From contig JAUSPN010000040.1 in assembly GCA_030656555.1 (NCBI GenBank), positions 70,536 to 134,535 of the forward strand: a stretch of 64,000 bases of DNA, read 5' to 3'. Shown piece after piece: positions 3,512 to 50,957 of this stretch. How positions within the stretch are numbered: position 1 is the first letter of the stretch; each line of letters opens with the position of its first letter. This DNA is from Candidatus Desulfaltia sp. Lineage in GTDB: Bacteria; Desulfobacterota; Desulfobacteria; Desulfobacterales; ETH-SRB1. A model generated the notes under the pieces. That model was not told where the DNA came from. It did not search any database and was given only the letters and a program-made list of their open reading frames with translations. Position numbers and translations under genes: made by a program.

Positions 3512-3657
3512 AGGTGATAAAGCCGTTGACATTTTATCGGCCATTTCATAGAATAATTGTAGCCGTTCACGGCTTGAAGCTTGAAATTGGAAAGTAGAAA
3601 TTTGGGAGAGATGAAACGAGTTTACGAGAACAGCACAAAAGCATGAAGGCCGAATTT

Positions 3658-3757: not shown

Positions 3758-4210
3758 ATGAAGGAATTTAATAAAATTTTATTTCCTGTTGATCTTTCAG
3801 AATCATCACCCAAAATCGTTCCCTTTGTGACAACAATGGCCCGTAAATTTGGATCGGAAATTCATCTTTTATTTGTGGCCCGTGTTTTTGAATATTTTTC
3901 CGGTATTTACGTTCCTCATACTTCTATAAACCAGTTTGAAGATGAGGTGGTGAAAGGAGCAAAGAAACGGCTTGAAGAATTTACTGAAGAATGTTTTTCC
4001 GATTTTCCGGGGACCGAAGCGAAAGTGGTGCCAGGAGATATCTCGGAAGAAATTTTAAAATATACCGTATTTAATGGCATTGATTTACTTATCATGGGAA
4101 CCCATGGCAGGAAGGGGCTAGAAAAGGTGATTTTTGGCTCTGTAGCGGAAAGGGTGGCAAAAGCCTCTTCCGTGCCGGTTCTTCTTATAAACCCTTATAA
4201 AGCTTCCTGA
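3758..4210 (+). CDS. Universal stress protein (UspA family)
   Basis: 150 aa, with a C-terminal GTHGRKGLEKVIFGSVAERV motif typical of the Usp ATP-binding type. AGGAGG lies 7 nt upstream of the ATG. Confidence 0.85.
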   Translation: MKEFNKILFPVDLSESSPKIVPFVTTMARKFGSEIHLLFVARVFEYFSGIYVPHTSINQFEDEVVKGAKKRLEEFTEECFSDFPGTEAKVVPGDISEEILKYTVFNGIDLLIMGTHGRKGLEKVIFGSVAERVAKASSVPVLLINPYKAS

Positions 4211-4285
4211 TTATAAAGCAGGAAAGAAGGCAAAAGTGCCTTTTATAAAAACACAGGAACTTGCCCGTATGAAGGAGGTATAATT

Positions 4286-6682: not shown

Positions 6683-6712
6683 TGTTATTAAAAGAAAAAG
6701 GAGGGTTTTGAT

Positions 6713-7144
6713 ATGGCTTTAGCAAACCTGCTTTTAGTTGATGATGAAGTGCCGTTTGTGGAAACTATGATCAAGCGTTTGACAAAAAGAGATCTCAATG
6801 TTGTTGCTGCTTTCAGCGGGCATGAGGCTTTAGAACAGCTTGAAAAACATCGTAATATCGAAGTCGTTATCCTCGATGTTAAGATGCCGGTAATGGATGG
6901 CCTTGAAACTCTCTATGAAATAAAAAAGAAATATCCTTTGACAGAGGTAATCATGCTGACAGGCCATGCCACAATTGAAACAGGAATTGAGGGAATGAAG
7001 CTTGGAGCTTTTGATTATCTTATGAAGCCCTGCGATATAGGGGTACTTATTTCCAAGGTAGATGAAGCTGCGACTAAAAAGAGAAAGCATGATGAAAAAA
7101 TTATGGAAGCTCGTATGAAAGAGATTATTTCCAGGCGCGTATAA
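6713..7144 (+). CDS. Single-domain response regulator (receiver only)
   Basis: LLVDDE, ILDVKMPVMDG and LMKPCDI receiver motifs; 143 aa. Confidence 0.9.
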   Translation: MALANLLLVDDEVPFVETMIKRLTKRDLNVVAAFSGHEALEQLEKHRNIEVVILDVKMPVMDGLETLYEIKKKYPLTEVIMLTGHATIETGIEGMKLGAFDYLMKPCDIGVLISKVDEAATKKRKHDEKIMEARMKEIISRRV

Positions 7145-7153
7145 GGAAAGGTC

Positions 7154-7561
7154 ATGCCAAAGGAAAAAAAAGTTCAGGAAAATAGCATCAGGGTTCTTCT
7201 TGTTGATGACGAGAAGGAATATGTAAAAGTCCTGTCAAACAGATTGACCCTTAGAAATATTGATGTGACAAAGACCTACAGCGGCTCCGAAGCGCTTCAG
7301 GTCCTTCGCAAGCAAGATTTTGACGTGGCGGTTCTGGATATTAAAATGGAAGACATGGATGGGCTTGAACTTCTCAAGATATTAAAGAAAATGGCTCCTC
7401 AAATAGAGGTTATCATGCTTACCGGCCATGGTTCGGCAGAAGAGTCAAAGCAGGGGATGAAACTCGGCGCCTATAATTATCTCATTAAGCCATGCGAGTT
7501 TGAAGATTTACTTGATAAAATCAAGGGTGCTTATCAAAAGTCTCACTTATTGAAGCTTTAA
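7154..7561 (+). CDS. Single-domain response regulator (receiver only)
   Basis: VLLVDDE, VLDIKMEDMDG and LIKPCEF motifs; 135 aa. Confidence 0.9.
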   Translation: MPKEKKVQENSIRVLLVDDEKEYVKVLSNRLTLRNIDVTKTYSGSEALQVLRKQDFDVAVLDIKMEDMDGLELLKILKKMAPQIEVIMLTGHGSAEESKQGMKLGAYNYLIKPCEFEDLLDKIKGAYQKSHLLKL

Positions 7562-10354: not shown

Positions 10355-10769
10355 AGGGTTCACGGTTCAAGGTTAAGAGGTTCAAAGATTCATGATGCTT
10401 ACCCAGTGAAATCAGAGGCATCGGAAAAAATCGCGAAGCGATTAACCCTGAACCTGGAACCGTTAACCTTTGAACCCAGACCGACCCAATGTCCAATTTT
10501 TATCAGATCCGTTATGAATAAAGGGCTTGAAAACCATATAAAAATTATTTTTAACAAGGTCTGCTATTATTCACATGTAAACCAATTGTTTCACACATCC
10601 AACCTGTTGATATTTCATAATTTATTTATCAAATCTTTATCCTGATGCACCAATCACTGTAATCTAATAGTTTACAGAAAGTTTAAAGTCCAAACGCAAC
10701 CAATAAAATTAACAAGAAATTAATAATCATTACAAGCAATTAAGATTTTATTCTTGCTAACCTATTTTT

Positions 10770-22031: not shown

Positions 22032-22517
22032 GTCGTACCTCCTTACTTTTAGCCTTAATTAATCTCACAAGCCTCAGAATCGGACAAGTGGTTTAAGATA
22101 TCACTTGCTGCGTTTACACATTGAGAGACCCTTGAAAAATGTTCGATTTTATGAAGCTCCCCTTGACCCCGCCCTAAAGGACGGGGCTTGCGGGGAGCAA
22201 TTGCGGCGGGGAGCTTCAATGTTTCGAGGATTAAAGTTTGAGCCTGACGCAGATTTTGGGCAAAAAAGGGTGTTTTGCAAAGGTCTCTCATTTAGGGTAT
22301 TGACAAGGTCTGTTAAATTCCAATCTCTACGAGAAGTTGCGATTTTTTTTAGTAACAAGAGGCATTTATAATGTCAAGACAAAAACTAAAGACATCAGGG
22401 AACCGTCAAGTCGATGCAGACACCAGCACATCACGATCCAAAGGGTCTGCTGAACGGGTTCTGGAAGGGTATTACAATGTTTACATTCGCGCGCATGGAA
22501 GTTACTGTCCATTTTTA

Positions 22518-27369: not shown

Positions 27370-27470
27370 AATTGATAATTATCCGGATTGGTTAGGTTCT
27401 GTGAACCCTTGAACCGTGAACATGGGTAGTTGAGTTTTCTGTTTTAATTTGTTGCGCAAAAACAGCGTTA

Positions 27471-32997: not shown

Positions 32998-33046
32998 TTC
33001 TCCTAAAAACTCCTCCTTTAAGCTATTTTTATTCTCACCGGAATAT

Positions 33047-33187
33047 GATGAACTCGTAAAAAGTAAAATTCGTCGAATGTGTCATTTCGACCGTAGGGAG
33101 AAATCTTATCTTTTCAATAAGTTGCGGAATAAAGATTTCTCGTTTCACTCGAAATGACAAGTTTTTGTGACTTTTTACGAAGCCATC
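33047..33187. repeat. Full nested-hairpin intergenic element (MITE/REP-like)
   Basis: Three nested inverted-repeat pairs: GATGAACTCGTAAAAAGT / ACTTTTTACGAAGCCATC, GTCATTTCGA / TCGAAATGAC, and GAGAAATCTTAT / ATAAAGATTTCTC. Confidence 0.75.
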
Positions 33188-33350
33188 AAATATAACCCTC
33201 ATTAAAGTTTTAAATAAATACAGACTAAAACATGTTGAGTTAAAAATACCTTTCTGTTAATTAAAACAGATTAGGTATTAGGTAATAAGTATTTGATAAA
33301 ATAAATAGTTGGTTTAACTTAACACTTAACACCTATTCATGGAGGCGGAT

Positions 33351-41377: not shown

Positions 41378-41403
41378 GACCTATAAGCTCTCCGTAAATG
41401 CTT

Positions 41404-41959
41404 GGTGCAATACAAAAAGTTGCATCATTGATGATAATATCTTTAGCTATTCAACATACTGATTTAATGTCGAATGTCGAACAGGAAATGTTAAATTATG
41501 AAGTTTTATTCTTGTTTTGTTTAGCAGTACCTACGCTTGTTACAAAAATCGAGATTAATTGATTATTTTCATCTATCAATACGTCAAGTTTTGACACTGG
41601 TTTTATCAATCCGGCCTTCACAATTATAAGCAGCCATATTCTGGTTTCCCTTAATTCTTTCAGCGCTAATCGCATCTTATGGATAAAATCAGCTCTTGAT
41701 TCAGCACTTTGTGCTTCACCATAATTTGGAGCTGGTGATGTCCCACTACGAATAAGCTGGCGGGAAATATGATTTCCAATTTTTGTTTTCGGTAATGACT
41801 CTGCTGTTCTGATAACACGTACAGCAAAATCGATCAGCCGTTCTTCAAGGTCAAATTCTCTGCATACCTTCGACATTCATTATTCCCTGTTCGACATTCG
41901 ATATTCAAAAAAGTTGCCCTTTTAATCTCTATACCTTATCACTTTTTTGTATTGCATCT
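41404..41959. mobile_element. Inverted-repeat cassette carrying a four-helix-bundle ORF, flanked by 10-bp direct repeats
   Basis: Direct repeat GTAAATGCTT at 41394-41403 and 41960-41969. Terminal inverted repeat TGCAATACAAAAAGT (41406-41420) / ACTTTTTTGTATTGCA (41941-41956). Inner inverted repeat AATGTCGAATGTCGAACAGG (41466-41485) / CCTGTTCGACATTCGATATT (41886-41905). Confidence 0.55.
41496..41876 (-). CDS. Four-helix-bundle protein (23S rRNA intervening-sequence protein / Avd-like family)
   Basis: 126 aa. Family-typical motifs are QLIRSGTSPAPNYGEAQSAESRADFIHKMRLALKELRET. Confidence 0.85.
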   Translation of the reverse strand: MSKVCREFDLEERLIDFAVRVIRTAESLPKTKIGNHISRQLIRSGTSPAPNYGEAQSAESRADFIHKMRLALKELRETRIWLLIIVKAGLIKPVSKLDVLIDENNQLISIFVTSVGTAKQNKNKTS

Positions 41960-42007
41960 GTAAATGCTTAAGTTTTATCGTATATTACTACCACTGATCC
42001 CTGTCCC

Positions 42008-42871
42008 TTACTCTGTTTCATGTTCAATATATTGAAAAATATCCTGTATTCTTATAATCCCGATTACCGTCTCATTTTTTACAACAGGCATTGTCCTGAA
42101 ATTATGGGTAATCATGCGGTGCGCTGCCTCTGTAAGGCGTTCATCGGGCCGGGCGGTTATTATTTCTGTTTGCATGACTTCAATTACGGTTTTATTGGAA
42201 AGCCAGTGGGGGCTTTTGCTGAGTTCCATCCACCTTAAAGAGAATTCAGGCTGCATTTTCTGTGCTTCATTTATCAGGTCCCGTTTGGTGATAAAGCCCT
42301 GAAGCCTGTCTTTATCATCTATAACAAACAGGGTTTCCGCCCCTGTTTCTCCTGTTTCCCTGTTAAACTTGTCCACTGCCTTTGCAAGTAAATCCTCTGG
42401 TCTGAGTTTTTTGAAATCATGGCACATGATTTCTTTAACCAGATTTCTGGGCCACAGCACTGGATTACGCTTGATTGCCTCTGCATCATTAGCCTCTCTT
42501 ATCTTTGCAGCCAAATCCTCTATGTTGCAGGGTTTCATCAGGTAATCATATGCCCCCTCTCGTATTGCCTGAATTCCGGTTTCCAGCGTGGCATGCCCTG
42601 TCAGTATAATAATTTCCGTGTCAGGAGCCAGCTCTTTAATTTTCCTGAGAGTTTCGATTCCGTCCATACCCGGCATTTTAATATCCAGAACCACCACGTC
42701 AAACTCATCTTCACGTTTAACCGCATCCAATGCATCAAACCCGTCAAATGCGGTAAACACTTCAAATTCTCTTATCCTTAATATCTTGGCCATGCTGAGC
42801 GTAAGCTGTTTTTCATCATCTACGATCAGGACGCGAATTTTTTTGTTCAAATCAAAAATCTCCAATACCAA
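42008..42871 (-). CDS. Response regulator with CBS-pair output domain (REC-CBS)
   Basis: The receiver has VLDIKMPGMDG and LMKPCNI, followed by two CBS motifs. The architecture matches 35731. Confidence 0.9.
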   Translation of the reverse strand: MVLEIFDLNKKIRVLIVDDEKQLTLSMAKILRIREFEVFTAFDGFDALDAVKREDEFDVVVLDIKMPGMDGIETLRKIKELAPDTEIIILTGHATLETGIQAIREGAYDYLMKPCNIEDLAAKIREANDAEAIKRNPVLWPRNLVKEIMCHDFKKLRPEDLLAKAVDKFNRETGETGAETLFVIDDKDRLQGFITKRDLINEAQKMQPEFSLRWMELSKSPHWLSNKTVIEVMQTEIITARPDERLTEAAHRMITHNFRTMPVVKNETVIGIIRIQDIFQYIEHETE

Positions 42872-43140
42872 CCGTCATTCCCGCGAATGCAGGGCACGTA
42901 GTGACACGCAGTGAAGCCAAAGCGCTAACCATTAGCGCTGTCCAGAGCTTTAAAGGTTCAGGATTCAGAGGTTCAATGTTTGCCGAAAACCTGTTTGCCG
43001 TAACTCCGGCACAGGCAGGTCTGAATCCCGCTCCAGCGGGAATTCGTGAGTTTTGAATAAAGAAGGCACAAAAGAATCAAACGATTTGAAAATGAAAATA
43101 TCGGCGCATAGCAGTTAGCCCTGCGCTCCAAGAAAAATAA

Positions 43141-43258
43141 CCCTGAACCTTTGAACCGTGAACCTGTGAACGGTTACGTAATAAGTAACCGTTCACGGTC
43201 GTCGGTTCATAGTTTTTTCAACCGTGAACCGATAACTGTAAACCGTGAACGGTTACTA
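43141..43258. repeat. GTGAACCG-word repeat array including an ORF-less miniature of the 49.9-kb four-helix-bundle cassette
   Basis: Perfect hairpin GTGAACGGTTAC-gtaataa-GTAACCGTTCAC (43166-43196). Blocks 43243-43256, 43213-43238 and 43185-43208 match, in inverted orientation and the same order, blocks 49864-49877, 49945-49971 and 50341-50364. Confidence 0.75.
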
Positions 43259-43282
43259 TAGTCTTTAGCGGGTTTTACCGCT

Positions 43283-44326
43283 TTATAATATATATATCAG
43301 GTATATGACGTAAAAAACATTTCCTATTAAGAGTATCCAGCACGATATCCCTTTCTTGATCAGATAATAGGTAAATATGATCCCGGCTGAACAGATGGCC
43401 AGGATGATGCTGATGGCAATATCCTTGGTCAGGACCCATGGTGTAAGAAAAAGTCCGATACAGACAGCGATCGAGGACTGGTAAACCATGGCGCCGGTGA
43501 TATTGCCAAGGGCCAGGGTATCTTTCTTTCTAAGCGTCCAGAATATGCTTGCCCCGCCCACCTCAGGCAGCTCGGTTGCAAGGGGCGCAACAATCAGGGA
43601 GAGAATAACGGCCGGAATGCCTAAAGCAATAGACAGATCGCCGAGTTTTCCCGCAAAAATAAAGATAATATACGCCATCATGACAAAACCGACAAGCAGT
43701 TGTAATATGGTGAGCCACAAAGGGGGTTCTTTGAACTTGAAGATCTTATTGAACCAGAGGCTTGCGTGTTCCTCCTCCTCTTCTTTTGCTTCTCCTCCTT
43801 CTGGTTCAGGCAGTGTTAATGTTTTCCACACATAAAAGGCATAGCCAAGCAAAAGGCCTATACCAAGAATGATGTTCAGCGTTCTGCTGTGGATCAGGCC
43901 CGCGATAATGGCAAGGGGATAAAAAGTGAAAAAGTATTTGAAGTTTCTGAGGATGCCCGGCTCTAACATGAGGTTAGGGCTTGTCCGGGACTTTGTAAAG
44001 ACTCCGATCGCGCCGGAAATGCCAACCACGCCGAGAGCTATGGTAGCAAGCATGAATGGAGCGCCCAGGATAGCTCCTATGCCGATCTCCTCTCCATGTC
44101 CCCCGCCGCCGCCAGCAGCACCGGAACCGACAAAGAGGATAGCTATCAGCGGCACCAGGGTTTCCGGTGTTGCGGTCCCGAATGAGGCCAGTATGCTGCC
44201 CGCTGCTGTGTCGCTCATGCCTATCTGACCCCCGAAATACTCAACTGCGTTAACAAAAACCAGGCAAAAACCCATAACCAGAAAACACAAAAAAACTACG
44301 TAAGTTAACAAAAGTCCAGTTCCCAT
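43283..44326 (-). CDS. Ca2+/cation antiporter (CaCA) family membrane protein (YrbG-like)
   Basis: ~10 TM helices with two alpha-repeat-like motifs (GSILASFGTATPE and GNITGAMVYQSS) and an acidic central loop (EEEEEH). Confidence 0.75.
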   Translation of the reverse strand: MGTGLLLTYVVFLCFLVMGFCLVFVNAVEYFGGQIGMSDTAAGSILASFGTATPETLVPLIAILFVGSGAAGGGGGHGEEIGIGAILGAPFMLATIALGVVGISGAIGVFTKSRTSPNLMLEPGILRNFKYFFTFYPLAIIAGLIHSRTLNIILGIGLLLGYAFYVWKTLTLPEPEGGEAKEEEEEHASLWFNKIFKFKEPPLWLTILQLLVGFVMMAYIIFIFAGKLGDLSIALGIPAVILSLIVAPLATELPEVGGASIFWTLRKKDTLALGNITGAMVYQSSIAVCIGLFLTPWVLTKDIAISIILAICSAGIIFTYYLIKKGISCWILLIGNVFYVIYLIYIL

Positions 44327-44588
44327 GATTCCCTCCGTATTCTGTCTTCCATTTATATTCTACAACTGTCAAAAATTGGTATATTCTTTAGTGGTCAAAA
44401 ATTAATTTTCTATATTAAAAACATTACTATTTGTCAAGAAGTTTCCTCGGCTTTATATGCGGCTTTAAAAGATCAAAAACCCCTTCCATGCTGGGTTCAT
44501 GCCGGTAAATACTTGACAGAAATTTTTTCAACTGATAGTTTTTGATAGTTTCTGAACCCTGAACCCTGAACCCTGAACGGAGACAGCC

Positions 44589-46721
44589 ATGGCTGTTGAT
44601 AAGACTTACAAAAGCAGAAGATGGGGCATTATTGTTGTGGTCATAGTTTCCATAGTTCCCATGGCAATTGCTTTGATTCTGGGGTTTTTGTCTATCAGGG
44701 ACATGAAAGGTGTGGTAGGCAGACAGTTTACCGAGGAACAACTGATCATTGCTCAGAATGTCTCCTATTTTATTGAAAGGCAAATCAACCTGTTAAAAGG
44801 AGAGATTATTCTTCTCAGCAAGAATGTTTCCGGAACATCCGGTGATAATCATGAATTTATCCGGAATGCAGCCATAGGTCTTTTTGATTCCGGTGTTTCA
44901 GAAATTGATGTTCTTAACCTGGATGAAAAGAATATCCATATATATAATTCTCATGGATATCGATCAGAAAAGCAGGCTATTGCTCCCGGGTGGTACAACG
45001 GACTTCATCCTGATAAAAGAAACGGCAGTGAAGTCATGGTTTCCATGCCACAGATCGAACCATCCGGCATAAGTGTAAAGCTGGCAAAATTTATGGATAC
45101 TGATTCCAGGAGACTGCTTGTTTTTACGGTCAATGTATCCGGGTTCGTCACACCCCTTTTGAAAAATATCCATCCCGGAGAAACAGGCTATGTGTGGATT
45201 ATTGACCAGAACGGAACTCTCCTTTTTCATCCTGAGCCTGAATCCGTGGGCAAAAATATTTTTGCGGAGCATGAAAACCAGGATATTTATGTTCCCCGTG
45301 AAAAGATCATTTTTGATCAAAGAAAAAAGATGTTAAACGGCCGGGAGGGCACAGGCTGGTATATTGCCGGCTGGCATCGTGGAGTTAGCGGAAAAACAAA
45401 GAAGCTGATAGCCTATTGCCCGATTGTTATATCCGGCAACCCGCCTCAAAACTGGTCAGCAGCCGTTGTAACACCCGCGTCTGAAATAGAAAAACCCATT
45501 CATTCCGGCTATTTGTGGCATTTCCTGTTACAGGTGGTAATGGTTGTTGTTGTTTTGTTGACCGCGGCGATCATGGTCATAATAGAAGTAAAACGGTCTC
45601 GTATCCTGCAGGAAAAGGTTGTCGTACAGAAACGCAAACTTACAATAACAGAAGAAAAATATCGTTTTCTGATTGAGAGCGCGGAAGACTTTATTTTTGC
45701 TGTTGATCAGGACGGCGTCTTTCAATCCATGAATAGCTTTACAGCCGGGTTTTTTGACGGTCAACCTGAAGATTTTGTCGGCAAAAACATCTCAGACCTG
45801 TTCCCCGCGAGAATCGCTGAAAAGCAGCTCGAACTGGTAAGGAAGGTTTATAAATTCGAAAAAAGCTTTAGCGGAGAGTTGGTGCTTAAAGAGAATGGCC
45901 GCCAGGCATGGATAAGCGCCGAGTTCATGCCTGTAAGAAACGAAGAGCGGGAAGTAACTTCAGTATTGTGCATCGGCAGAGATCTTACTGAAAAGAAAAA
46001 GATGGAGGCACAGCTTATCAATGCCGAAAAACTGGCTTCCGTAGGGACTCTCGCAGCGGGCGTGGCTCATGAAATTAATAACCCGATGGGGGTTATATTA
46101 GGCCTTTGCGATCTTTTGCTGGATAAAGCACCCCAAAAGAGTCAGTTGTATGAAGATATCAGGACAATACAGCGGCACAGCCTCCATTGCAAAGAAATCA
46201 TAGGGGATCTTTTAAGCTTTGCGCGCCCTGGTGGAGTGGAGCCGGGATATGCTGATTTAAATATCAGCCTTAAGGAAATAATCAGGGTGGTCGAGCCTGC
46301 ACTTAAGAAGCAAAATATCAATCTGATGCTGGATTTGGCCGAAGATATACCCCAGGTCAAGGGGAATTCACGCCAGTTGCAGCAGGTTTTCCTGAATTTA
46401 ATAAAAAACGGGGCTGGATCTATGATTGGCGGAGGCACGCTTACCATCCGTACAAGCATGGAAAACAGCAGACAAAACGCCGTCATTCAGTTCGAGGATA
46501 ATGGAGTTGGAATTAAAGAGGAACATATAAGCCATATATTTGAACCTTTTTTTACTACAAAGCCGGAAGGGGAAGGCACAGGTCTGGGTCTGTTCGTCAG
46601 CTATGGTATTGTTGCCGGGTATGGAGGGAGCCTGACATTTACCAGCCATGCTGCGGATTCCCATGGCAAAACAGGGACTACCTTTACCATAAAACTGCCT
46701 GTGAGGGTAGCTAATGGCTAA
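44589..46721 (+). CDS. Sensor histidine kinase (extracytoplasmic Cache-like + PAS + HisKA + HATPase; family 2)
   Basis: GYVWIIDQNGTLLFHP; PAS region [21 protein letters not shown]; H-box [11 protein letters not shown]; GTGLGLF. Confidence 0.9.
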   Translation: MAVDKTYKSRRWGIIVVVIVSIVPMAIALILGFLSIRDMKGVVGRQFTEEQLIIAQNVSYFIERQINLLKGEIILLSKNVSGTSGDNHEFIRNAAIGLFDSGVSEIDVLNLDEKNIHIYNSHGYRSEKQAIAPGWYNGLHPDKRNGSEVMVSMPQIEPSGISVKLAKFMDTDSRRLLVFTVNVSGFVTPLLKNIHPGETGYVWIIDQNGTLLFHPEPESVGKNIFAEHENQDIYVPREKIIFDQRKKMLNGREGTGWYIAGWHRGVSGKTKKLIAYCPIVISGNPPQNWSAAVVTPASEIEKPIHSGYLWHFLLQVVMVVVVLLTAAIMVIIEVKRSRILQEKVVVQKRKLTITEEKYRFLIESAEDFIFAVDQDGVFQSMNSFTAGFFDGQPEDFVGKNISDLFPARIAEKQLELVRKVYKFEKSFSGELVLKENGRQAWISAEFMPVRNEEREVTSVLCIGRDLTEKKKMEAQLINAEKLASVGTLAAGVAHEINNPMGVILGLCDLLLDKAPQKSQLYEDIRTIQRHSLHCKEIIGDLLSFARPGGVEPGYADLNISLKEIIRVVEPALKKQNINLMLDLAEDIPQVKGNSRQLQQVFLNLIKNGAGSMIGGGTLTIRTSMENSRQNAVIQFEDNGVGIKEEHISHIFEPFFTTKPEGEGTGLGLFVSYGIVAGYGGSLTFTSHAADSHGKTGTTFTIKLPVRVANG

Positions 46722-46756
46722 AAGCTAATTGCTCACGTCGAAATTCAGGAGAACCA

Positions 46757-48229
46757 ATGACTGCCAGAATACTCATAATAGATGACGAGAAAGATATGCT
46801 GAATGTTTTGAAGCGGATTATCTCCGAAAAGAGAAACTACAGCGTAACCATTGAACCTGATCCGATAATTGCCCTTGAATTGTTTATGAAAGATCCATTT
46901 GATCTGGTCATAACCGATTTAAAGATGCCCGGTATGGACGGTATCAAGCTCCTTGAAGAGGTCAAAAAGATCAGCCCCGGAACTTCGGTTTTTGTCATGA
47001 CCGCTTACGGCACAATTGAAACCGCAGTGGATGCGATTAAAAAAGGCGCCTATGATTACATAACCAAACCGTTTCTGTCGGAACATGTCCTGCTGACAAT
47101 AGACAAGGCTGTGAAATGGCGGCAGATGGTAAAGGAAAACCTTGCTCTCCGCCAGGCCCTGGAGGAAAAAGAGGGTTATCCGCCTATAATCGGGGCCAGC
47201 CCGGCTATAAGGGAGGTGTTTGAACATATCAGGCAGGTGGCCCCGAGCATGGCTACGGTTTTAATCACAGGCCCGAGCGGCACGGGCAAGGAACTGGTTG
47301 CCGGGGCTATTCACAGGAATAGCCGCAGAAGCTCCAAAGCAATGGTTACCATCAACTGTACGGCCTTACCTGAACAGATTATGGAAAGCGAGCTTTTTGG
47401 TCATGTAAAGGGCGCGTTCACGGGGGCCTGGCGAGATAAAAAGGGCCTGGTTGAGGAGGCGCACGAAGGAACCCTGTTTTTGGATGAAATCGCCGACCTG
47501 AGCCCTTTTATGCAAACCAAGCTGCTCAGGCTCCTGCAGGATGGTGAGTATAAGCCGGTTGGCGGCGTTTTTACCAAAAAAGCCGACATCCGAGTTATCG
47601 CCGCTACCAACCATGATATAACCCGGGATGTAAAGGAAAAACGTTTCAGAGAAGACCTTTATTATCGGTTAAACGTGGTGCATATTGAACTGCCTCCGCT
47701 TAGTGAAAGAAAAGAGGATATTCCGCTTATAGCTTATCATTTCATGGAAAAGTATGCCCGTATAAACCAGAAGGATATCCGGGAAATTTCCCCCCCGGCC
47801 ATGCAGGCGCTGCTTTTAAATGAGATGCCGGGCAATGTCAGGGAGCTGCAAAATATCATCGAGCGCGGGATTATTTTTTGCCAAAGTAATGTTATGGAAA
47901 TGAAAGACCTGTTTCCTAAAATAGAACTGAAACCCCCTTGTCTGAAATCAGATCAGGACATGTATATGTGTTGCATTCGCCTTAAAGACGCAAAGGACTT
48001 GGCGATAAAGGACTTTAAAAATGCAAGGGAAGAGATGATCCGTTTGTTTCATTCATGGTATGTAAAGCAGGTTCTCCTGGAAAGCAGGGGAAACATTACC
48101 AGAGCTGCTGATATGGCAGGCATTCAAAGGCAATATCTTTACCGGTTGATGAAAGAAGCAGGCATAAACCGCAAACAGTTTAAACCCGACCCCGACCCGA
48201 CCTCTACCCACCCCACACACAAACTGTAA
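46757..48229 (+). CDS. Sigma-54-dependent response regulator (NtrC family)
   Basis: ITDLKMPGMDG, GPSGTGKE, GAFTGA and LFLDEIA motifs; HTH GNITRAADMAGIQRQYLYRLMK. Confidence 0.95.
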   Translation: MTARILIIDDEKDMLNVLKRIISEKRNYSVTIEPDPIIALELFMKDPFDLVITDLKMPGMDGIKLLEEVKKISPGTSVFVMTAYGTIETAVDAIKKGAYDYITKPFLSEHVLLTIDKAVKWRQMVKENLALRQALEEKEGYPPIIGASPAIREVFEHIRQVAPSMATVLITGPSGTGKELVAGAIHRNSRRSSKAMVTINCTALPEQIMESELFGHVKGAFTGAWRDKKGLVEEAHEGTLFLDEIADLSPFMQTKLLRLLQDGEYKPVGGVFTKKADIRVIAATNHDITRDVKEKRFREDLYYRLNVVHIELPPLSERKEDIPLIAYHFMEKYARINQKDIREISPPAMQALLLNEMPGNVRELQNIIERGIIFCQSNVMEMKDLFPKIELKPPCLKSDQDMYMCCIRLKDAKDLAIKDFKNAREEMIRLFHSWYVKQVLLESRGNITRAADMAGIQRQYLYRLMKEAGINRKQFKPDPDPTSTHPTHKL

Positions 48230-48389
48230 CACAGATGTTACATTGCAGGTATTTATGTAACCCTGCAGGCTACAAATCGTCTGTTTCATAGAGCTTTTTT
48301 ATCCAACAAAAAGCATCTAAAAAAATGCAATTTTTAAAATTACCAGTGCTATTCACATGTTAGATGCCAGGGCTGTTTTTAATCCCTGA

Positions 48390-48405
48390 TGGCACATGTT
48401 TTGCT
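48390..48405 (+). promoter_or_regulatory. Sigma-54 (-24/-12) promoter
   Basis: TGGCAC-atgtt-TTGCT is an exact match to the consensus core. It lies 160 nt downstream of the activator gene. Confidence 0.85.
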
Positions 48406-48411
48406 ATAAAG

Positions 48412-48452
48412 AGGCTTTGATTAGCAGGCTTTGATTAGCAGGCTTTGATTAG
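48412..48452 (+). repeat. Tandem repeat, 3 x 14 nt (AGGCTTTGATTAGC)
   Basis: Three contiguous, nearly perfect units begin at about the predicted sigma-54 transcription start. The complementary CTAATCAAA lies at 48610-48618. Confidence 0.85.
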
Positions 48453-48465
48453 ATGTCTCAGAACT

Positions 48466-48587
48466 AAAACTGCAATTTTAGTCATTGCGAGTAGAACAAA
48501 GTAATCTCATAACACATTTATAATTCATGAGATTGCCACGGCATCCACCTGAGGCGGATTCCTCGCAATGACTAAAATTGCAGTTTT
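48466..48587. repeat. Perfect 26-bp inverted repeat enclosing 70 nt (nested-hairpin element family)
   Basis: AAAACTGCAATTTTAGTCATTGCGAG (48466-48491) pairs with CTCGCAATGACTAAAATTGCAGTTTT (48562-48587). The inner pair is AATCTCAT/ATGAGATT. Confidence 0.85.
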
Positions 48588-48733
48588 GCAAAGATCAAAC
48601 CAAAAAAGTCTAATCAAAAAAGGGGGTGGTGACAGGCAAAAAAGTGAAAAGCCGGTTTTGATATTACATAAAAGATTATAACCGGTCAATAGCAATTCGG
48701 TTAACTTAGTTATATTATTTAAGGAGGTCATAA

Positions 48734-49783
48734 ATGACTGAAGTAAAAGATGAAAAAAGGATGGGATGGGAGTCTGCTCGCGAGATCGAGGCAGAAAAAG
48801 CAACCATGGCCGAGAGAGCAATGCTGACCAAGGAAAATATTAAAACTTTGCTGATGTATTCGGTAGCCTTTGTCGGTCTTTTTGCTGTCGCCTGGTGGCT
48901 GGCTGGCTGTCCGTTTGAGTTTACACAGCGCCTTCCCTCGGAATATGTGGTAAAACATGGCTTGGTCGGCACAACCAACTGGACGATTGTATGGTATGTT
49001 GTTTTTATGTGCGCATTTTTTGAGTTTATGGATTCTGCCGGCGGCATGGGCTACGGCACAGCCCTGACACCGCTGATGCTTATAGCAGGCTTTGATCCAA
49101 AGCAGGTTGTGCCCTGCGTAATGATCACAGAGGCTTTCACAGGGCTGATAGCCGGGATGGTGCACAGTGAATTCGGCAATGTGGAGTGGAGTTTCAGCCC
49201 CTTAAACGAGACCACAAAGCTGACGGTATTAGTCTGCGCCGTCGGTATTGTGTGCGTCTGCTTCTCCATTACCGCGGCTTACAAGGTTTTAAAAGTCCAC
49301 AAGGTATGGATCAAGCTTTATGTGGCCGTCCTTCTGGTGGTAATGGGGATCTGCTCCCTCATGACGGCTAAGAAGTATACGACGTACAGGCCCAAGTGGA
49401 TGATTTTATTCGCGGGTCTTGGCGGCTTTAACAAGGGTGTTGGAGGCGGAGGCTACGGCCCGGTTATTACGGTCGGCGGCCTTCTTGCCGGTGTTCCCGT
49501 AAAGAGCATGGTGGCCATCACCTCCCTGGCAGAAGGCGTAACATGCGTGTTTGCCGTGGGTATGTGGTTTATCCTTCTTTCCACAGGGGTGGTCATCGAC
49601 TATATGCTCCTGCCGTCGTTTGTAATCGGCACGGTCATAGCTGCTGTTGCCGCGCCTTATGTAACGCGGATTTTTTCGGAAAAGTTCTGGAAGATCCTTG
49701 TTCCTACCTATTGCTGTATCCTGGCAGTTTACTGCTTCTATAAGATCATTCCAAGTGTTATAAAGAAGCTGAAAGCCGGCTGA
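48734..49783 (+). CDS. TSUP-family (TauE/SafE-like) permease, divergent member
   Basis: Polytopic, with glycine motifs DSAGGMGYGTALTP and GVGGGGYGPVITVGG. The RBS is AAGGAGG. Confidence 0.75.
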   Translation: MTEVKDEKRMGWESAREIEAEKATMAERAMLTKENIKTLLMYSVAFVGLFAVAWWLAGCPFEFTQRLPSEYVVKHGLVGTTNWTIVWYVVFMCAFFEFMDSAGGMGYGTALTPLMLIAGFDPKQVVPCVMITEAFTGLIAGMVHSEFGNVEWSFSPLNETTKLTVLVCAVGIVCVCFSITAAYKVLKVHKVWIKLYVAVLLVVMGICSLMTAKKYTTYRPKWMILFAGLGGFNKGVGGGGYGPVITVGGLLAGVPVKSMVAITSLAEGVTCVFAVGMWFILLSTGVVIDYMLLPSFVIGTVIAAVAAPYVTRIFSEKFWKILVPTYCCILAVYCFYKIIPSVIKKLKAG

Positions 49784-49829
49784 TCCGATCTGGTTGATTC
49801 GGCAACTTAACCGGCTTCATAAAGATAAC

Positions 49830-49862
49830 GGGGTCTCTGCATAAATGCAGGGGCCCCTTTTT
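49830..49862 (+). terminator. Rho-independent terminator
   Basis: 12-bp stem GGGGTCTCTGCA / TGCAGGGGCCCC (two G-U pairs), 4-nt loop, then TTTTT. It lies 47 nt after the TSUP stop codon. Confidence 0.8.
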
Positions 49863-49990
49863 CGTAACCGTTCACGGTTACCCCTGTTCTTAGTGCTTGA
49901 CCACGATATAAAACTCATGTAAGGAAAAAGAGGATAACATTTTACAGTTATCGTTTCACGGTTGAAAAAAATAAAAGGTAGAGGAAATTT

Positions 49991-50356
49991 ATGGGATCCT
50001 CTTTTGAAGATTTAGAAGTTTGGAAAAAATCTTGTAGATTGTCAGTGCGTTTTTATAAATTATTAAGAGATTGCCGGGATTATGGAATGAAAGATCAAAT
50101 GATGCGCTCATCTATATCTATTCCATCAAATATTGCAGAAGGAAGCGAAAGAAAGAGTGTTCCGGATTTCCAAAGGTTTATAAATATTGCACAGGGATCG
50201 GCTGCGGAGCTGAGAACACAGATTTATATTTCACGAGAGGTTAATATATTTTCTGATTCAGATGCGAAAGAATTGATTCAAGAGTTGAAATCAATATCCA
50301 AAATGCTTCAATCGTTGCATGGTTCGTTAAAAAAAACCGTGAACCGACAACCGTGA
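49991..50356 (+). CDS. Four-helix-bundle protein (23S rRNA intervening-sequence protein / Avd-like family)
   Basis: 121 aa with family-typical motifs FEDLEVWKKS, DQMMRSSISIPSNIAEGSER and FINIAQGSAAELRTQ. It is flanked by GTGAACCG-word inverted repeats. Confidence 0.85.
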   Translation: MGSSFEDLEVWKKSCRLSVRFYKLLRDCRDYGMKDQMMRSSISIPSNIAEGSERKSVPDFQRFINIAQGSAAELRTQIYISREVNIFSDSDAKELIQELKSISKMLQSLHGSLKKTVNRQP

Positions 50357-50414
50357 ACTGTTACGGATTGTCAATCTTTTAACACTTAACTGCTTAACAC
50401 ATTTCGAAAAAACT

Positions 50415-50957
50415 ATGACTATTCAAAAAACTGATCGATTTAAAAAAGAAAGCCTCTATGCCAGATGGTGGAACAGCCGTAACTTTATTCAGAAACGCGT
50501 GATTCGGTTCTGCATGATAATGATTGTGATGATTCTTTGTTTTCCGCTGTATTATCTTGGGTTTTTCGGTACAATGGAGGGTCCACTGGACCCTACGCAT
50601 TTAGGCGAACAACTCAGCAATATAGGCGTGACAAAGACCAGGATGCTGGTTTTTTTTATCTCTCTTGCGGCTATTTCAGTATCATGGAACTGGGTTTACA
50701 ACCTTATCAGCATTTTGATGGGCTCGCGTCTTACCTGCAAACGGGAAATAGATGATGAGGGGACAGTATGCGGCGCATCGGTTAAGCGAAATAAAATCGT
50801 TAATAAAAAAACAAAGCAGATGACCGCGCAATATGTGTGCATCCACGGCCACAAACGCCCGGATGCCCACTTCCACTCGTTAAAAAAGAGCGCCTTCAGC
50901 CATACATTATGGGTTCTTTCCGTGGTGTTTTCCCTGATCGTCTTTTTCGAGTCCTGA
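50415..50957 (+). CDS. Hypothetical membrane protein with Cys/His cluster
   Basis: 180 aa with three hydrophobic segments and a C-x10-C ... C-x-H-x-H cluster in a basic loop. There is no clear RBS. Confidence 0.45.
   Translation: MTIQKTDRFKKESLYARWWNSRNFIQKRVIRFCMIMIVMILCFPLYYLGFFGTMEGPLDPTHLGEQLSNIGVTKTRMLVFFISLAAISVSWNWVYNLISILMGSRLTCKREIDDEGTVCGASVKRNKIVNKKTKQMTAQYVCIHGHKRPDAHFHSLKKSAFSHTLWVLSVVFSLIVFFES

Follow-up and report, generated by a model that had tools for sequence, protein, structure and literature searches.

What relates a gene-free hairpin to a gene-bearing cassette when both are built from the same three sequence blocks? We addressed this question in a 64,000-nt stretch of DNA from a Candidatus Desulfaltia sp. 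(the window), in which blocks A, B and C lie around an open reading frame (ORF) near 50 kb and recur in the same order, on the opposite strand and without an ORF, near 43 kb. The first-pass annotation offered two readings, either loss of the ORF from a longer cassette (MITE-like) or insertion of an ORF into a pre-existing hairpin, as with ORFs of 23S rRNA intervening sequences (IVSs), and proposed a census of the blocks and folding of both versions. Its observation is confirmed and its interpretation is partly supported. Our preferred reading, with a probability of about 0.7, is that a single family of very small DNA transposons, mobilized by a transposase acting in trans, includes both the 72-bp hairpin and the ORF cassette.

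The two copies in the window

Reading of the sequence and pattern searches reproduced all coordinates, match counts and spacings that had been given. This ORF-less, 72-bp copy (MITE) of the W2-type element occupies 43185-43256 on the minus strand, as delimited by block matches, fold and family consensus, and reads A-TTTA-B-loop-C. Block A (GTAACCGTTCACGG) matches exactly (14/14) at 43243-43256 (−); a pattern search of the window also places it exactly at 43185-43198 (+), and the miniature is thus bounded by perfect 14-bp terminal inverted repeats. Block B is 25/26 identical at 43213-43238 (−) and block C 22/24 identical at 43185-43208 (−), with A–B and B–C gaps of 4 and 4 nt, compared with 67 and 369 nt at 50 kb. 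The block matches at 43 kb and 50 kb are far above chance as estimated from dinucleotide shuffles. In the window, block A with at most two mismatches occurs 10 times (0.18 expected), blocks B and C twice each (0.00 expected) and the word CCGTGAAC 12 times (0.9 expected). Seven GGTTCA/TGAACC clusters, against 0.46 expected, include the shorter fragments that had been pointed out at 10357-10390, 27395-27428 and 44552-44580.

The predicted fold of the 72-nt miniature is a single long hairpin (z about −7.7, range −7.5 to −7.9; −38 to −39 kcal/mol), with 0 of 200 shuffles equally stable, and the terminal stem of the full cassette is present in both MFE and centroid folds. The miniature starts 27 nt past the stop codon of a Na/Ca-exchanger gene. 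Close relatives do not carry it, and their homology to the window ends exactly at its end (43257); no intact target-site duplication flanks it (CGTAATAA vs TATAGTCT, 2/8 match). It has one heptamer less than the commonest, 79-bp form of the family and is closer to the family consensus than the local ORF cassette is; it is not a derivative of that cassette. Seven nucleotides away lies the solo end of a related element (43141-43177, reading GTAACCGTTCACAGGTTCACGGTTCAAAGGTTCAGGG on the minus strand), whose heptamers are complementary to 42953-42976. A full copy at locus L002 is followed by a like arrangement (element end, 7 nt, GTAACCGTTCACA).

The ORF-bearing W2-type element spans 49933-50364 (+) and was delimited by homology to loci L002, L003, L004 and L024, which extends only over 49941-50364 (88–93% identity) between unrelated flanks. 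The left end is degenerate and lacks one heptamer (GATAACATTTTACAG…), the right end is intact (CCGTGAACTGTTAC), the target-site duplication is not intact (4/8 match), and the relatives compared at this site have no cassette there. Block B (49945-49971, +) consists of the inner heptamers of the left arm and an A-run, pairs with 50333-50347, and is followed downstream by a Shine-Dalgarno-like GGTAGAGGA. Block C (50341-50364, +) corresponds to the right arm, terminal inverted repeat included; it reaches the right limit of inter-genome homology and encodes the last 5 codons (TVNRQ-P) of the ORF. That ORF (49991-50356, +) encodes a 121-aa four-helix-bundle protein assigned to PF05635 (23S_rRNA_IVP) and TIGR02436 (E = 1e-34), with PDB relatives 2GSC (E = 3e-18) and 2RLD. 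The protein is under strong purifying selection, with dN/dS of 0.04–0.2 even at dS >1, and proteins 80–93% identical are found in Desulfobacterota, Chlorobium, Nitrospirota, Nitrospinota, Methylococcales and Anaerolineae. The window contains no rRNA gene.

Block A also matches exactly at 49864-49877 (+), within an 18-bp palindrome (GTAACCGTTCACGGTTAC, 49864-49881, +), and the first-pass annotation had counted it, along with the 67-nt A–B spacer, as part of the cassette. Alignment with relatives contradicts both assignments: L202, L203 and L204 carry a complete 79-bp mini at the 49864 position, between the same flanks as in the window (…CCCCTTTTTC to the left, CCCTGTTCTTAGTGC… to the right), and most of the spacer (49882 to ~49920) is flank DNA common to the relatives. 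Segment 49864-49881 is what is left of another, collapsed 79-bp mini, not the left end of the ORF cassette. Because neither W2-type copy in the window has intact duplications, the case for their mobility comes from family membership and absence in relatives. Five presence/absence differences, a sign of recent activity, separate the window from L098 and L101 (~93–96% identical DNA) and L202–L210 (whose proteins fall into shared 90%-identity clusters with those of the window).

Family-wide duplications and deletions

The canonical W2-type element is ~443 bp long, has a single ORF (PF05635) and ends in GTAACCGTTCACGG…CCGTGAACGGTTAC, each end comprising GTAACC and then about four GTTNNCR heptamers. 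A census with an exact 26-mer from the A–B junction (CGGTTTACAGTTATCRGTTCACGGTT) matched at least 120 metagenome contigs; of the 96 A–B junctions with 500 nt or more of sequence downstream, 71 were followed by block C. In a set of 56 distinct complete copies (72–613 bp), the 8 nt on the left and right agreed at 8/8 positions in 14 and at 7/8 in 10 (24/56 together), compared with 0.1% and 0.4% (~0.5% together) for non-cognate flanks; the 8-nt register alone yields more than one perfect repeat. The duplication of a Chlorobium copy, for instance, reads GGCTTTTC / GGTTTTTC. Flanks match at no more than 3/8 positions in 21 of the 56 copies (~38%).

An intact ORF is present in 2–4 of these copies, remnants in ~35 and no trace in 17. 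Deletion junctions fall at microhomologies (e.g., GGTTGAAA/TCAATATCC and CAGAAGGT/TTATAAAT), and the commonest deletion repeat, TTGAAAAAAC, lies just ahead of the ORF and again at its end. The same derivative recurs at several sites (two for a doubly deleted 157-bp form, four for a 121-bp form and six for the 79-bp form), and copies 92–99% identical sit in unrelated flanks. The junction of the 79-bp mini, TTGAAAAAACTGTGAAC, is identical to the last ORF codons (…L K K L stop); at this position the window's 72-bp copy reads TTGAAAAAACTATGAAC. Variant ends (GTAAGCGTTCACGG) are present among the loci. The graded series of ORF remnants, the microhomology junctions, the 8-bp duplications and the recurrence of one derivative at different sites bear out the MITE-like reading of the miniature. 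They show that the element inserts in AT-rich intergenic DNA, duplicating 8 bp of target, that internal deletions at short direct repeats strip part or all of the gene, and that the resulting 72–400-bp derivatives, the window's miniature included, keep both arms and are still copied elsewhere.

A second transposon of this sort is the first four-helix-bundle cassette of the window, a 557-bp W1-type element at 41403-41959 (−) with terminal inverted repeats TGGTGCAATACAAAAAG and CTTTTTTGTATTGCATCT. Its TGTCGAA-heptamer inverted repeats (41463-41485 and 41887-41909) enclose a PF05635 ORF (41496-41876), and a 9-bp target-site duplication (GTAAATGCT) occupies 41394-41402 on the left and 41960-41968 on the right. 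The other known W1-type copy, which is deleted and nested in L098, has its own 9-bp duplication (ATGCAACGA), and both duplications are perfect. The ORF-less GGTTCA-type heptamer hairpin at 10357-10476 (arms 10357-10392 and 10443-10476, loop ~50 nt), which the syntenic relative L098 has as well, is a small element of a related yet separate kind. Across phyla, 61 of 74 PF05635 loci have a significant 5′/3′ inverted repeat, with differing heptamer words. We do not extend the mobility claim to the whole PF05635 family, because a strict scan for terminal inverted repeats and duplications at 74 more distant PF05635 loci yielded almost nothing and the verrucomicrobial copies occupy one conserved site.

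Source of mobility and competing explanations

Cutting and joining would be carried out by a DDE-type transposase making 8-bp staggered cuts and supplied in trans. An IS66-family enzyme would be our best guess, at slightly short of even odds, because IS66 ends start with GTAAGCGT and the duplications are 8 bp. No larger element with these ends and duplication occurs in the 2.1–2.3 Mb of fetched DNA, a small sample biased towards elements, and neither a recurrent transposase-like ORF cluster nor a transposase was found among the fetched loci. The four-helix protein might act on the heptamer arms of the element, as DNA or as an RNA stem, promoting or regulating propagation; this role is conjectural throughout, and we propose it tentatively. 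The arms may also pair in RNA around the ORF, like ORF-containing 23S rRNA IVSs, and RNase III could excise insertions in operons or rRNA, making them tolerable. The same protein stays with the same ends from phylum to phylum, a pairing that sits uneasily with a need for an unlinked transposase.

That co-occurrence fits an autonomous element, in which the four-helix protein would itself be the mobility factor (a new transposase or an end-binding recruiter of a universal host enzyme), with one pentamer subunit per heptamer and miniatures using protein from intact copies. The protein is the product of the sole ORF of the full-length element, it is conserved jointly with arms that change more slowly than synonymous sites, and its gene is found in both W1-type and W2-type elements, whose terminal repeats are unrelated. 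No transposase turned up in 2.3 Mb; the closest solved homologue, 2GSC, has five chains per entry, and the arms hold ~4–5 heptamers. The ORF as mobility component was also proposed by Ralph and McClelland, as quoted in PMC4990558. We nonetheless consider autonomy unlikely: no nuclease or recombinase fold or motif is known in the 116-aa helical bundle, the homologue that has been characterized, Avd, serves as an accessory protein without catalytic activity, and duplications of a constant 8 bp are what DDE enzymes typically produce. Moreover, gene-free small elements carry the same 14-nt end, as at 3559-3657 of the window, where there is no trace of the gene, which points to an external enzyme recognizing that end. 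Avd is needed for cDNA synthesis in diversity-generating retroelements, and the arms form a stable RNA stem in predicted folds, so one might picture a resident reverse transcriptase copying an arm-folded transcript, with its Avd-like protein bound, into DNA that then integrates. Such a route is very improbable, as no reverse transcriptase adjoins any copy examined, the inverted termini are complete at both sides with the duplication fixed at 8 bp, and the deletions are internal, with no poly-A and no 3′-biased truncations.

Insertion of the ORF into an original 72-bp hairpin, the other reading of the first-pass annotation, agrees with the position of the ORF in the hairpin loop in both versions and with the existence of nested insertions into these elements (L098, L096/L157 and L193). 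It is contradicted by the ORF remnants of the deletion series, which make intermediates with ORF pieces of varied size and microhomology junctions of ~35 of the 56 copies, by the last ORF codons at the 79-bp mini junction, and by ORF-bearing copies with identical arms across phyla; we reject it as scarcely credible. Immobile host regulatory hairpins (REP/BIME-like terminators, mRNA stabilizers or heptamer-array operators), arising and decaying in place and made similar by convergent selection, would suit the miniature's position just past the exchanger gene and the solo arrays directly before start codons, which resemble TAACTGA arrays (PMC4679880). One such array, (CTGAACC) x3–4 at 44552-44580 (+), ends 8 nt ahead of a histidine-kinase ATG (44589), is conserved in relatives and lies outside any bounded element; another occupies 50378-50400. 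The solo arrays excepted, immobility retains a negligible probability given the rate of 8-bp duplications relative to the control, the near-identical copies in unrelated flanks and the precise insertion boundaries against close relatives.

Relation to known systems

The copies resemble MITE-like elements in being short, non-coding, AT-targeting and multi-copy, with terminal inverted repeats and a fixed-length duplication, and in forming graded internal deletions of a longer parent whose derivatives are still mobile. Here, however, the parent is only ~443 bp, has no recognizable transposase and encodes a 116-aa four-helix-bundle protein as its sole product, and the arms are heptamer arrays instead of one simple inverted repeat. 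An example of a mobile insertion cassette (MIC) is MIC231 of Bacillus cereus, which IS231A mobilizes in trans. Like MICs, the ORF-bearing copies have IS-like inverted repeats around a passenger gene, no transposase and a target duplication, and MIC would be the best formal category for them, although no cognate IS was identified and the PF05635 cargo recurs in two families with unrelated ends. This recurrence, and the occurrence of hairpin-flanked PF05635 genes in many phyla, suggest a gene that is bound up with how the element lives and is not a random passenger.

The IS66 inverted repeat reads GTAAGCGTCCGG… (PMC12888890), and IS66 direct repeats are 8 bp (PMC3281130). The ends described here likewise begin GTAA(G/C)CGT and the duplication is also 8 bp, but the likeness covers only the first ~8 nt, tnpA, tnpB and tnpC are lacking, and the DNA examined yielded no IS66-like element bearing such ends. 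Avd has a homologous four-helix bundle and binds nucleic acid and an enzyme partner, whereas the neighbourhood of the element contains neither a reverse transcriptase nor template or variable repeats. Cyanobacterial STRR sequences are arrays of heptanucleotide repeats. In Beggiatoaceae, cyanobacteria and Bacteroidetes, TAACTGA repeats have been described as direct repeats (PMC4679880). The arrays here share with these 7-nt units, intergenic location and a frequent end just before start codons, and the element arms include the unit GTTATCA, of which TAACTGA is the reverse complement. In contrast, TAACTGA arrays come without a bounded element, duplication or PF05635 link, whereas the arrays here are inverted transposon arms.

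The IVS of Coxiella burnetii (428–444 nt) carries an S23p ORF within a terminal stem of 28 bp that RNase III cleaves, and Leptospira has ORF-containing IVSs as well (PMC4990558). The elements described here share with such IVSs the PF05635 ORF, a length of ~440 nt, a terminal complementary stem around the ORF and a patchy distribution suggesting horizontal transfer. The architectural side of the analogy drawn in the first-pass annotation therefore holds; the decisive property, DNA transposition, lay outside the tests it proposed. Our elements lie in intergenic DNA and within operons rather than in rRNA, their stem is known from predicted folds, and duplications and ORF-less derivatives are documented for them, whereas the literature found describes neither for IVSs. 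The 30-year-old idea of intervening sequences as transposons thus becomes directly testable.

Blocks A, B and C in the miniature and the ORF-bearing cassette

A pattern search of the window returned block A exactly at 49864-49877 (+), 43243-43256 (−) and 43185-43198 (+), block B with 25/26 matches at 43213-43238 (−), and block C with 22/24 matches at 43185-43208 (−). Shuffles gave chance expectations of 0.18 matches for A and 0.00 for both B and C. Together with direct reading of the sequence at 43141-43262 and 49861-50364, these searches reproduced the block coordinates and match counts of the first-pass annotation, which had described words around the ORF at 49991-50356 recurring on the opposite strand in an ORF-less miniature (43185-43256). 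Because A is exact at both ends, the miniature has perfect 14-bp terminal inverted repeats (14/14, 43185-43198 and 43243-43256), as a MITE does. It is 72 bp long, within the MITE range (< ~500 bp), and non-coding, with chance ORFs only and no similarity to the interior of the cassette's ORF. Folding, which the annotation had proposed as a check, yielded a single long hairpin (−38 to −39 kcal/mol, z ~−7.7) with an outer stem of 15-16 bp. No Rfam family, rRNA or tRNA was found in the 64-kb window.

The ORF at 49991-50356 encodes a PF05635 four-helix-bundle protein (E = 1e-34, 119 bits against a cut-off of 33.8), with TIGR02436 and NF008912 also above their cut-offs and 2GSC and 2RLD as homologues of solved structure. 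The window contains another PF05635 ORF at 41496-41876 (−). PF05635 is a very large family whose founders are ORFs in 23S rRNA intervening sequences (IVSs). Protein searches returned thousands of homologues of the window protein, and 14,660 cluster representatives at 50% identity for PF05635. The closest proteins, 80-93% identical, come from Desulfobacterota, Nitrospinota, Nitrospirota, Chlorobium, Methylococcales and Anaerolineae; the exact window protein had no match among called genes on record. Many close homologues end in tails such as TVNRQP, TVNRKPLTVNR and PATGNRQP, which are translated ACCGTGAACCG-type repeats. Some top cluster representatives are 64-106 aa long or match the query in two stretches (P0249, P0252), a pattern that gene calling on copies with internal deletions would be expected to produce. 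The dN/dS ratio is 0.04-0.2 even at saturated synonymous sites, indicating strong purifying selection, and the protein accompanies conserved arms across phyla.

The cassette is neighbored by genes for TauE, a 180-aa membrane protein and an MFS transporter. Both MFE and centroid folds of 49855-50375 contain a terminal stem enclosing the ORF, as expected of an IVS. Promoter and terminator scans inside the element gave nothing beyond shuffle expectation; since there is scant space for a promoter in the canonical 5' arm, the ORF is probably expressed by read-through. Matches to the element or its protein were absent from plasmids (DNA search), phages (protein search) and viral contigs (pattern and protein searches), and PADLOC and PHROGs gave no matches.

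Target-site duplication and internal deletion in two element families

The miniature and the ORF copy belong to a family of ~443-bp elements with a PF05635 gene, which we call W2-type. Four fetched loci (L002, L003, L004 and L024) resemble the window over 49941-50364 only, at 88-93% identity (BLASTN), with unrelated flanks. In their copies 4 nt separate A from B, which is also the spacing of the miniature (GTAACCGTTCACGG-TTTA-CAGTTATCGGTTCACGGTTGAAAAAAA). Each arm comprises GTAACC followed by about four GTTNNCR heptamers, and the last codons of the ORF fall within the right arm. The exact 26-mer across the A-B junction is matched by at least 120 metagenome contigs. Among the matches listed, 96 junctions have 500 nt or more of sequence beyond them, and a C block lies downstream of 71 of these.

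After removal of duplicates, the matches listed contain 56 complete copies at distinct sites, 72-613 bp in length: 11 of ≤90 bp, 39 of 91-430 bp, 5 of 440-444 bp and 1 of 613 bp. The ORF is intact in 2-4 of these, reduced to remnants in ~35 and absent from 17. Deletion junctions sit at short repeats, for example where the 5'-UTR word GGTTGAAA is fused to …TTGAAATCAATATCC of the ORF, or CAGAAGGT to …AAGGTTTATAAATATTGCA. The commonest form, of 79 bp, has the junction TTGAAAAAAC, a word found ahead of the ribosome-binding site as well as at the ORF end; the window's miniature is this form less one heptamer. The annotation had left two readings of the miniature, as a deletion derivative of an ORF-bearing cassette or as a hairpin into which the ORF was later inserted. 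Graded ORF remnants and microhomology-type junctions strongly support the former, and the latter is wrong, given that ~35 of the 56 listed copies keep ORF pieces of varying size.

The 8 nt immediately outside GTAAC…GTTAC are identical on the left and right in 14 of the 56 listed copies and agree at 7/8 in 10 more, so that 24/56 carry a fixed-length duplication at ≥7/8. Non-cognate flank pairs gave 8/8 in 0.1% and 7/8 in 0.4% of trials. Across registers of 4-12 nt, perfect repeats occurred at 8 nt (14 copies) and 6 nt (one copy), with zero at all others. The duplicated sites are 82% A+T, and G is favored at position 8. Single derivatives occur at several sites with differing duplications (the 79-bp form at six, the 121-bp form at four and the 157-bp form at two), and the 157-bp form holds two independent deletion junctions. 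Canonical copies have the features of a mobile insertion cassette (MIC), as in L002 (9937-10380, duplication AAAATATA/AAAATATG) and in a full-length Chlorobium copy flanked by GGCTTTTC/GGTTTTTC. W2-type elements therefore enter new sites as DNA, with an 8-bp target duplication; they also undergo internal deletion, and the deleted forms keep spreading.

The window's first four-helix-bundle cassette (41403-41959, −) is a member of a second transposon family, W1-type. It is 557 bp long, has terminal repeats TGGTGCAATACAAAAAG and CTTTTTTGTATTGCATCT, and lies within a perfect 9-bp duplication, GTAAATGCT (site 41394-41968), 9 bp being the length that W1-type elements duplicate on insertion. These terminal repeats (GGTGCAATACAAAAA) are unrelated to those of W2-type elements, and TGTCGAA-type heptamer inverted repeats sit inside them, directly around the ORF. 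A W2-type element of L098 contains a deleted W1-type copy (6705-6978), which is likewise flanked by a perfect 9-bp duplication, ATGCAACGA. Nested small elements recur at CAATCGTTGCAT within W2-type elements (L098, ~6700-7000; the 256-bp copies of L096 and L157), and CAATCGTTGCAT is duplicated on both sides of each such insertion.

Five insertion differences separate the window from its close relatives, namely L098 and L101, metagenome contigs that align to it at 93-96% DNA identity, and L202-L210, contigs fetched via proteins that fall in one 90%-identity cluster with a protein of the window. L098 has a 440-bp W2-type element between window positions 4249 and 4260, flanked by ATATATTA/ATATATTG, where the window has none; this element is internally deleted and houses the nested copy of the window's first cassette. 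A 143-bp derivative that is missing from the window follows 44493 in L101 and L208. Conversely, 3' of the Na/Ca-exchanger gene, homology stops exactly at the terminal base of the miniature (43257), which the relatives do not have. The relatives also lack the ORF copy (~49933-50364, left end degenerate, GATAACATTTTACAG) and have GC-hairpin tandem repeats instead. At 49864-49881, relatives have an intact 79-bp mini-element where the window has just an 18-bp palindrome, GTAACCGTTCACGGTTAC. Block A at 49864 consequently belongs to a different, collapsed copy and had been mis-assigned to the ORF cassette; the ~40 nt after 49881 are flank DNA common to window and relatives, as is most of the supposed 67-nt spacer between A and B.

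In place of the miniature or ORF cassette, intergenic regions in L202 (~7150-7420) and L208-L210 carry ~57-nt tandem repeats around CCCCCCTTGAGGGGGG hairpins, and one of these regions includes an ORF-less TGTCGAA-heptamer hairpin inside another terminal repeat, AATGCTGTTGACTTAAG.

With at least 120 contigs, 56 listed sites and five presence/absence differences, the family has the multi-copy, polymorphic character of a MITE. For the window's two W2-type copies, whose 8-nt flanks agree at 2/8 (miniature) and 4/8 (ORF copy) and thus are not intact duplications, we infer mobility from family membership and from presence or absence in relatives. Fixed-length duplications, a gene-less deletion series and insertion differences between close relatives are the first direct DNA-level signs that PF05635 ORF-plus-stem cassettes transpose.

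Breadth of PF05635 cassettes and other small repeats

To gauge generality, inverted repeats at 74 PF05635 loci from many phyla were scored by local alignment of the 5' flank with the reverse complement of the 3' flank, with shuffled, non-cognate and direct-orientation controls. The 5'/3' repeat exceeded the 99th percentile of shuffles at 61 of the 74, and cognate flank pairs outscored non-cognate pairs by far. The heptamer word varies among cassettes (GTTTTAA, GTGTTCA, GGTGCAA, GGGTTAA and others). RNA duplex energies of the flanks were dropped owing to implausibly large values and a poor control. A strict scan of the same loci for terminal repeats with a perfect duplication recovered nothing beyond the window's first cassette and a single doubtful hit, so we do not claim mobility for all PF05635 cassettes.

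Several cassettes are wedged into operons or conserved gene pairs. In Verrucomicrobiota, the PF05635 cassette always lies between metK-like and ahcY-like genes, labels that derive from terminal sequence motifs only (L043, L044, L046-L048, L052, L056, L059, L066, L070-L072 and L077; also L010). In those comparisons at this site in which the AhcY-like proteins are ~90% identical, the four-helix proteins are just ~50% identical, with differing heptamer arms. This suggests that the site is a hot spot at which cassettes have repeatedly been replaced, and not simply inherited vertically. In L001 (2950-3400), a W2-like cassette with heptamer arms, lacking GTAAC termini, separates cheR from cheB of a chemotaxis operon, its stop overlapping the cheB start (ATGA). 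A PF05635 cassette between cmr3 and cmr2 has also been reported (PMC3936711). Genes for a "four helix bundle protein" within operons and defense loci should accordingly be treated as insertions and not be counted among the components of those systems.

The window holds further small repeats. The 14-nt W2-type end recurs at 3559-3657 (GTAGCCGTTCACGG), followed by CTTGAAA/TTGGAAA heptamers; the right end was not found nearby. This element lies upstream of an unannotated 150-aa ORF (3758-4210) and recurs in L002, L098, L121, L128, L153, L156 and L187. Because it has the same 14-nt end, it suggests, from sequence, that a single end-recognizing enzyme may serve several element families. A distinct small-element family without GTAAC termini is represented at 10357-10476, an ORF-less hairpin with GGTTCA-type heptamer arms and a ~50-nt loop that is also in syntenic L098. 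A MITE-like repeat at 33042-33189, with the hairpin GTCATTTCGACCGTAGGGAGAAATC…GATTTCTCG…CGAAATGAC, has 76-89% identical copies in L139, L187 and L099 and weaker partial matches in L084 and L085. Short repeat families at 42870-42954 (L178, L169) and 22147-22293 (L138, L178, L169, L199) recur in metagenome loci, and a piece resembling the former by eye is nested in a W2-type copy of L193. Inverted CTAAAGT-heptamer arms occur at 1172-1236 and 1396-1414, where the aligned blocks lie 167 nt apart in the window and 21 nt apart in syntenic L098; the predicted start of a 718-aa ORF, at 1355, falls within the additional DNA. In these genomes, intergenic DNA is subject to rapid turnover by several families of mini-elements of this kind.

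Solo arrays precede start codons as well: CTGAACC ×3-4 at 44552-44580, just 5' of the ATG at 44589, and CTTAACA-type arrays at 50378-50400 and 33310-33335, before ATGs at 50415 and ~33351. They resemble the TAACTGA arrays 5' of start codons in Beggiatoaceae and cyanobacteria, described in a paper that does not mention the PF05635 protein (PMC4679880), and could be either leftover element arms or sites with a regulatory role.

Mobilizing enzyme and likeness to known systems

In ~2.1-2.3 Mb of fetched DNA, no transposase was found in the element, adjoining it, or in a larger element with the same ends. A-type end pairs 0.6-6 kb apart and GTAA…TTAC elements of 0.7-4 kb with a duplication gave no transposase partner with W1- or W2-type ends in this DNA, and no IS mobilizing in trans was identified there. 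The search for 0.6-4 kb elements with inverted repeats of ≥17/20 and a perfect 8- or 9-bp duplication recovered just one unrelated IS (L036), and clusters of ORFs of ≥280 aa in the fetched loci were syntenic duplicates only. In ends and duplication length the elements resemble the IS66 family, which has inverted repeats beginning GTAAGCG (GTAAGCGTCCGG… in ISPsk01; PMC12888890) and 8-bp repeats (PMC3281130). W2-type ends (GTAACCGT, variants GTAAGCGTTCACGG) share just ~8 nt with ISPsk01, and unlike IS66 the element is without the TnpC DDE transposase, nor was a recurrent or end-flanked large ORF seen in the loci examined. We regard mobilization in trans by an IS66-like DDE enzyme, whose identity we infer, as the most likely mechanism, with a probability of about 0.45.

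Alternatively, the PF05635 protein could itself be the mobility factor. It is the only product encoded by the longer parent element, which, where a MITE parent would encode a transposase, has none, and on sequence grounds we favor a role for it at the element's own arms because it is under strong purifying selection and travels with conserved arms. That this role extends to mobility we consider improbable. It is equally doubtful that PF05635 proteins are the element-encoded mobility or end-binding factors of an unrecognized class of ~440-bp ultra-small transposons with heptamer-array arms, and we think it unlikely that these elements form a new class of autonomous mini-transposon. Were such a class real, ORF-containing 23S rRNA IVSs, operon-wedged PF05635 genes (cheR-cheB, metK-ahcY, cmr3-cmr2) and many intergenic heptamer hairpins would be its insertions or relics. 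The data also supply two reagents ready for transposition, binding and RNase III assays: a consensus 79-bp substrate and the 116-aa protein.

Full-text literature searches found no paper in which transposons, MITEs, target-site duplications or heptamer arms were connected with PF05635 or IVS proteins; the mini-element phenomenon is broad and apparently undescribed. Formally, the miniature is a MITE and the ORF-bearing copies are MICs, and membership in both classes fails because the transposase partner is missing. REP/BIME palindromes, associated with RAYT Y1 enzymes, differ in making no target duplication, whereas W2-type elements do; no RAYT-like ORF was noticed. The integron attC analogy (GTTRRRY core) was rejected, since the ORF has an arm on either side, insertion duplicates target DNA and no integrase was noted. 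The PF05635 protein is homologous to Avd, the DGR accessory protein; no reverse transcriptase is present among the called genes beside the window and L001 cassettes, as an Avd-type context would require.

The Coxiella IVS, of 428-444 nt, has an S23p ORF within a 28-bp stem cut by RNase III. Debate over the origin of IVSs goes back to 1990-93, the proposals being a "remnant of transposition" and a mobile element with an ORF for a "mobility component" (quoted in PMC4990558). The window cassette likewise combines a PF05635/S23p protein with complementary termini enclosing the ORF. In contrast to an IVS, it lies outside any 23S rRNA helix, between TauE and membrane-protein genes, and IVS-class membership fails because no rRNA is at the location. 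In RNA the predicted pairing of the arms encloses the ORF, as in the Coxiella IVS, and IVS-like cutting by RNase III could explain how insertions are tolerated in both operons and rRNA.
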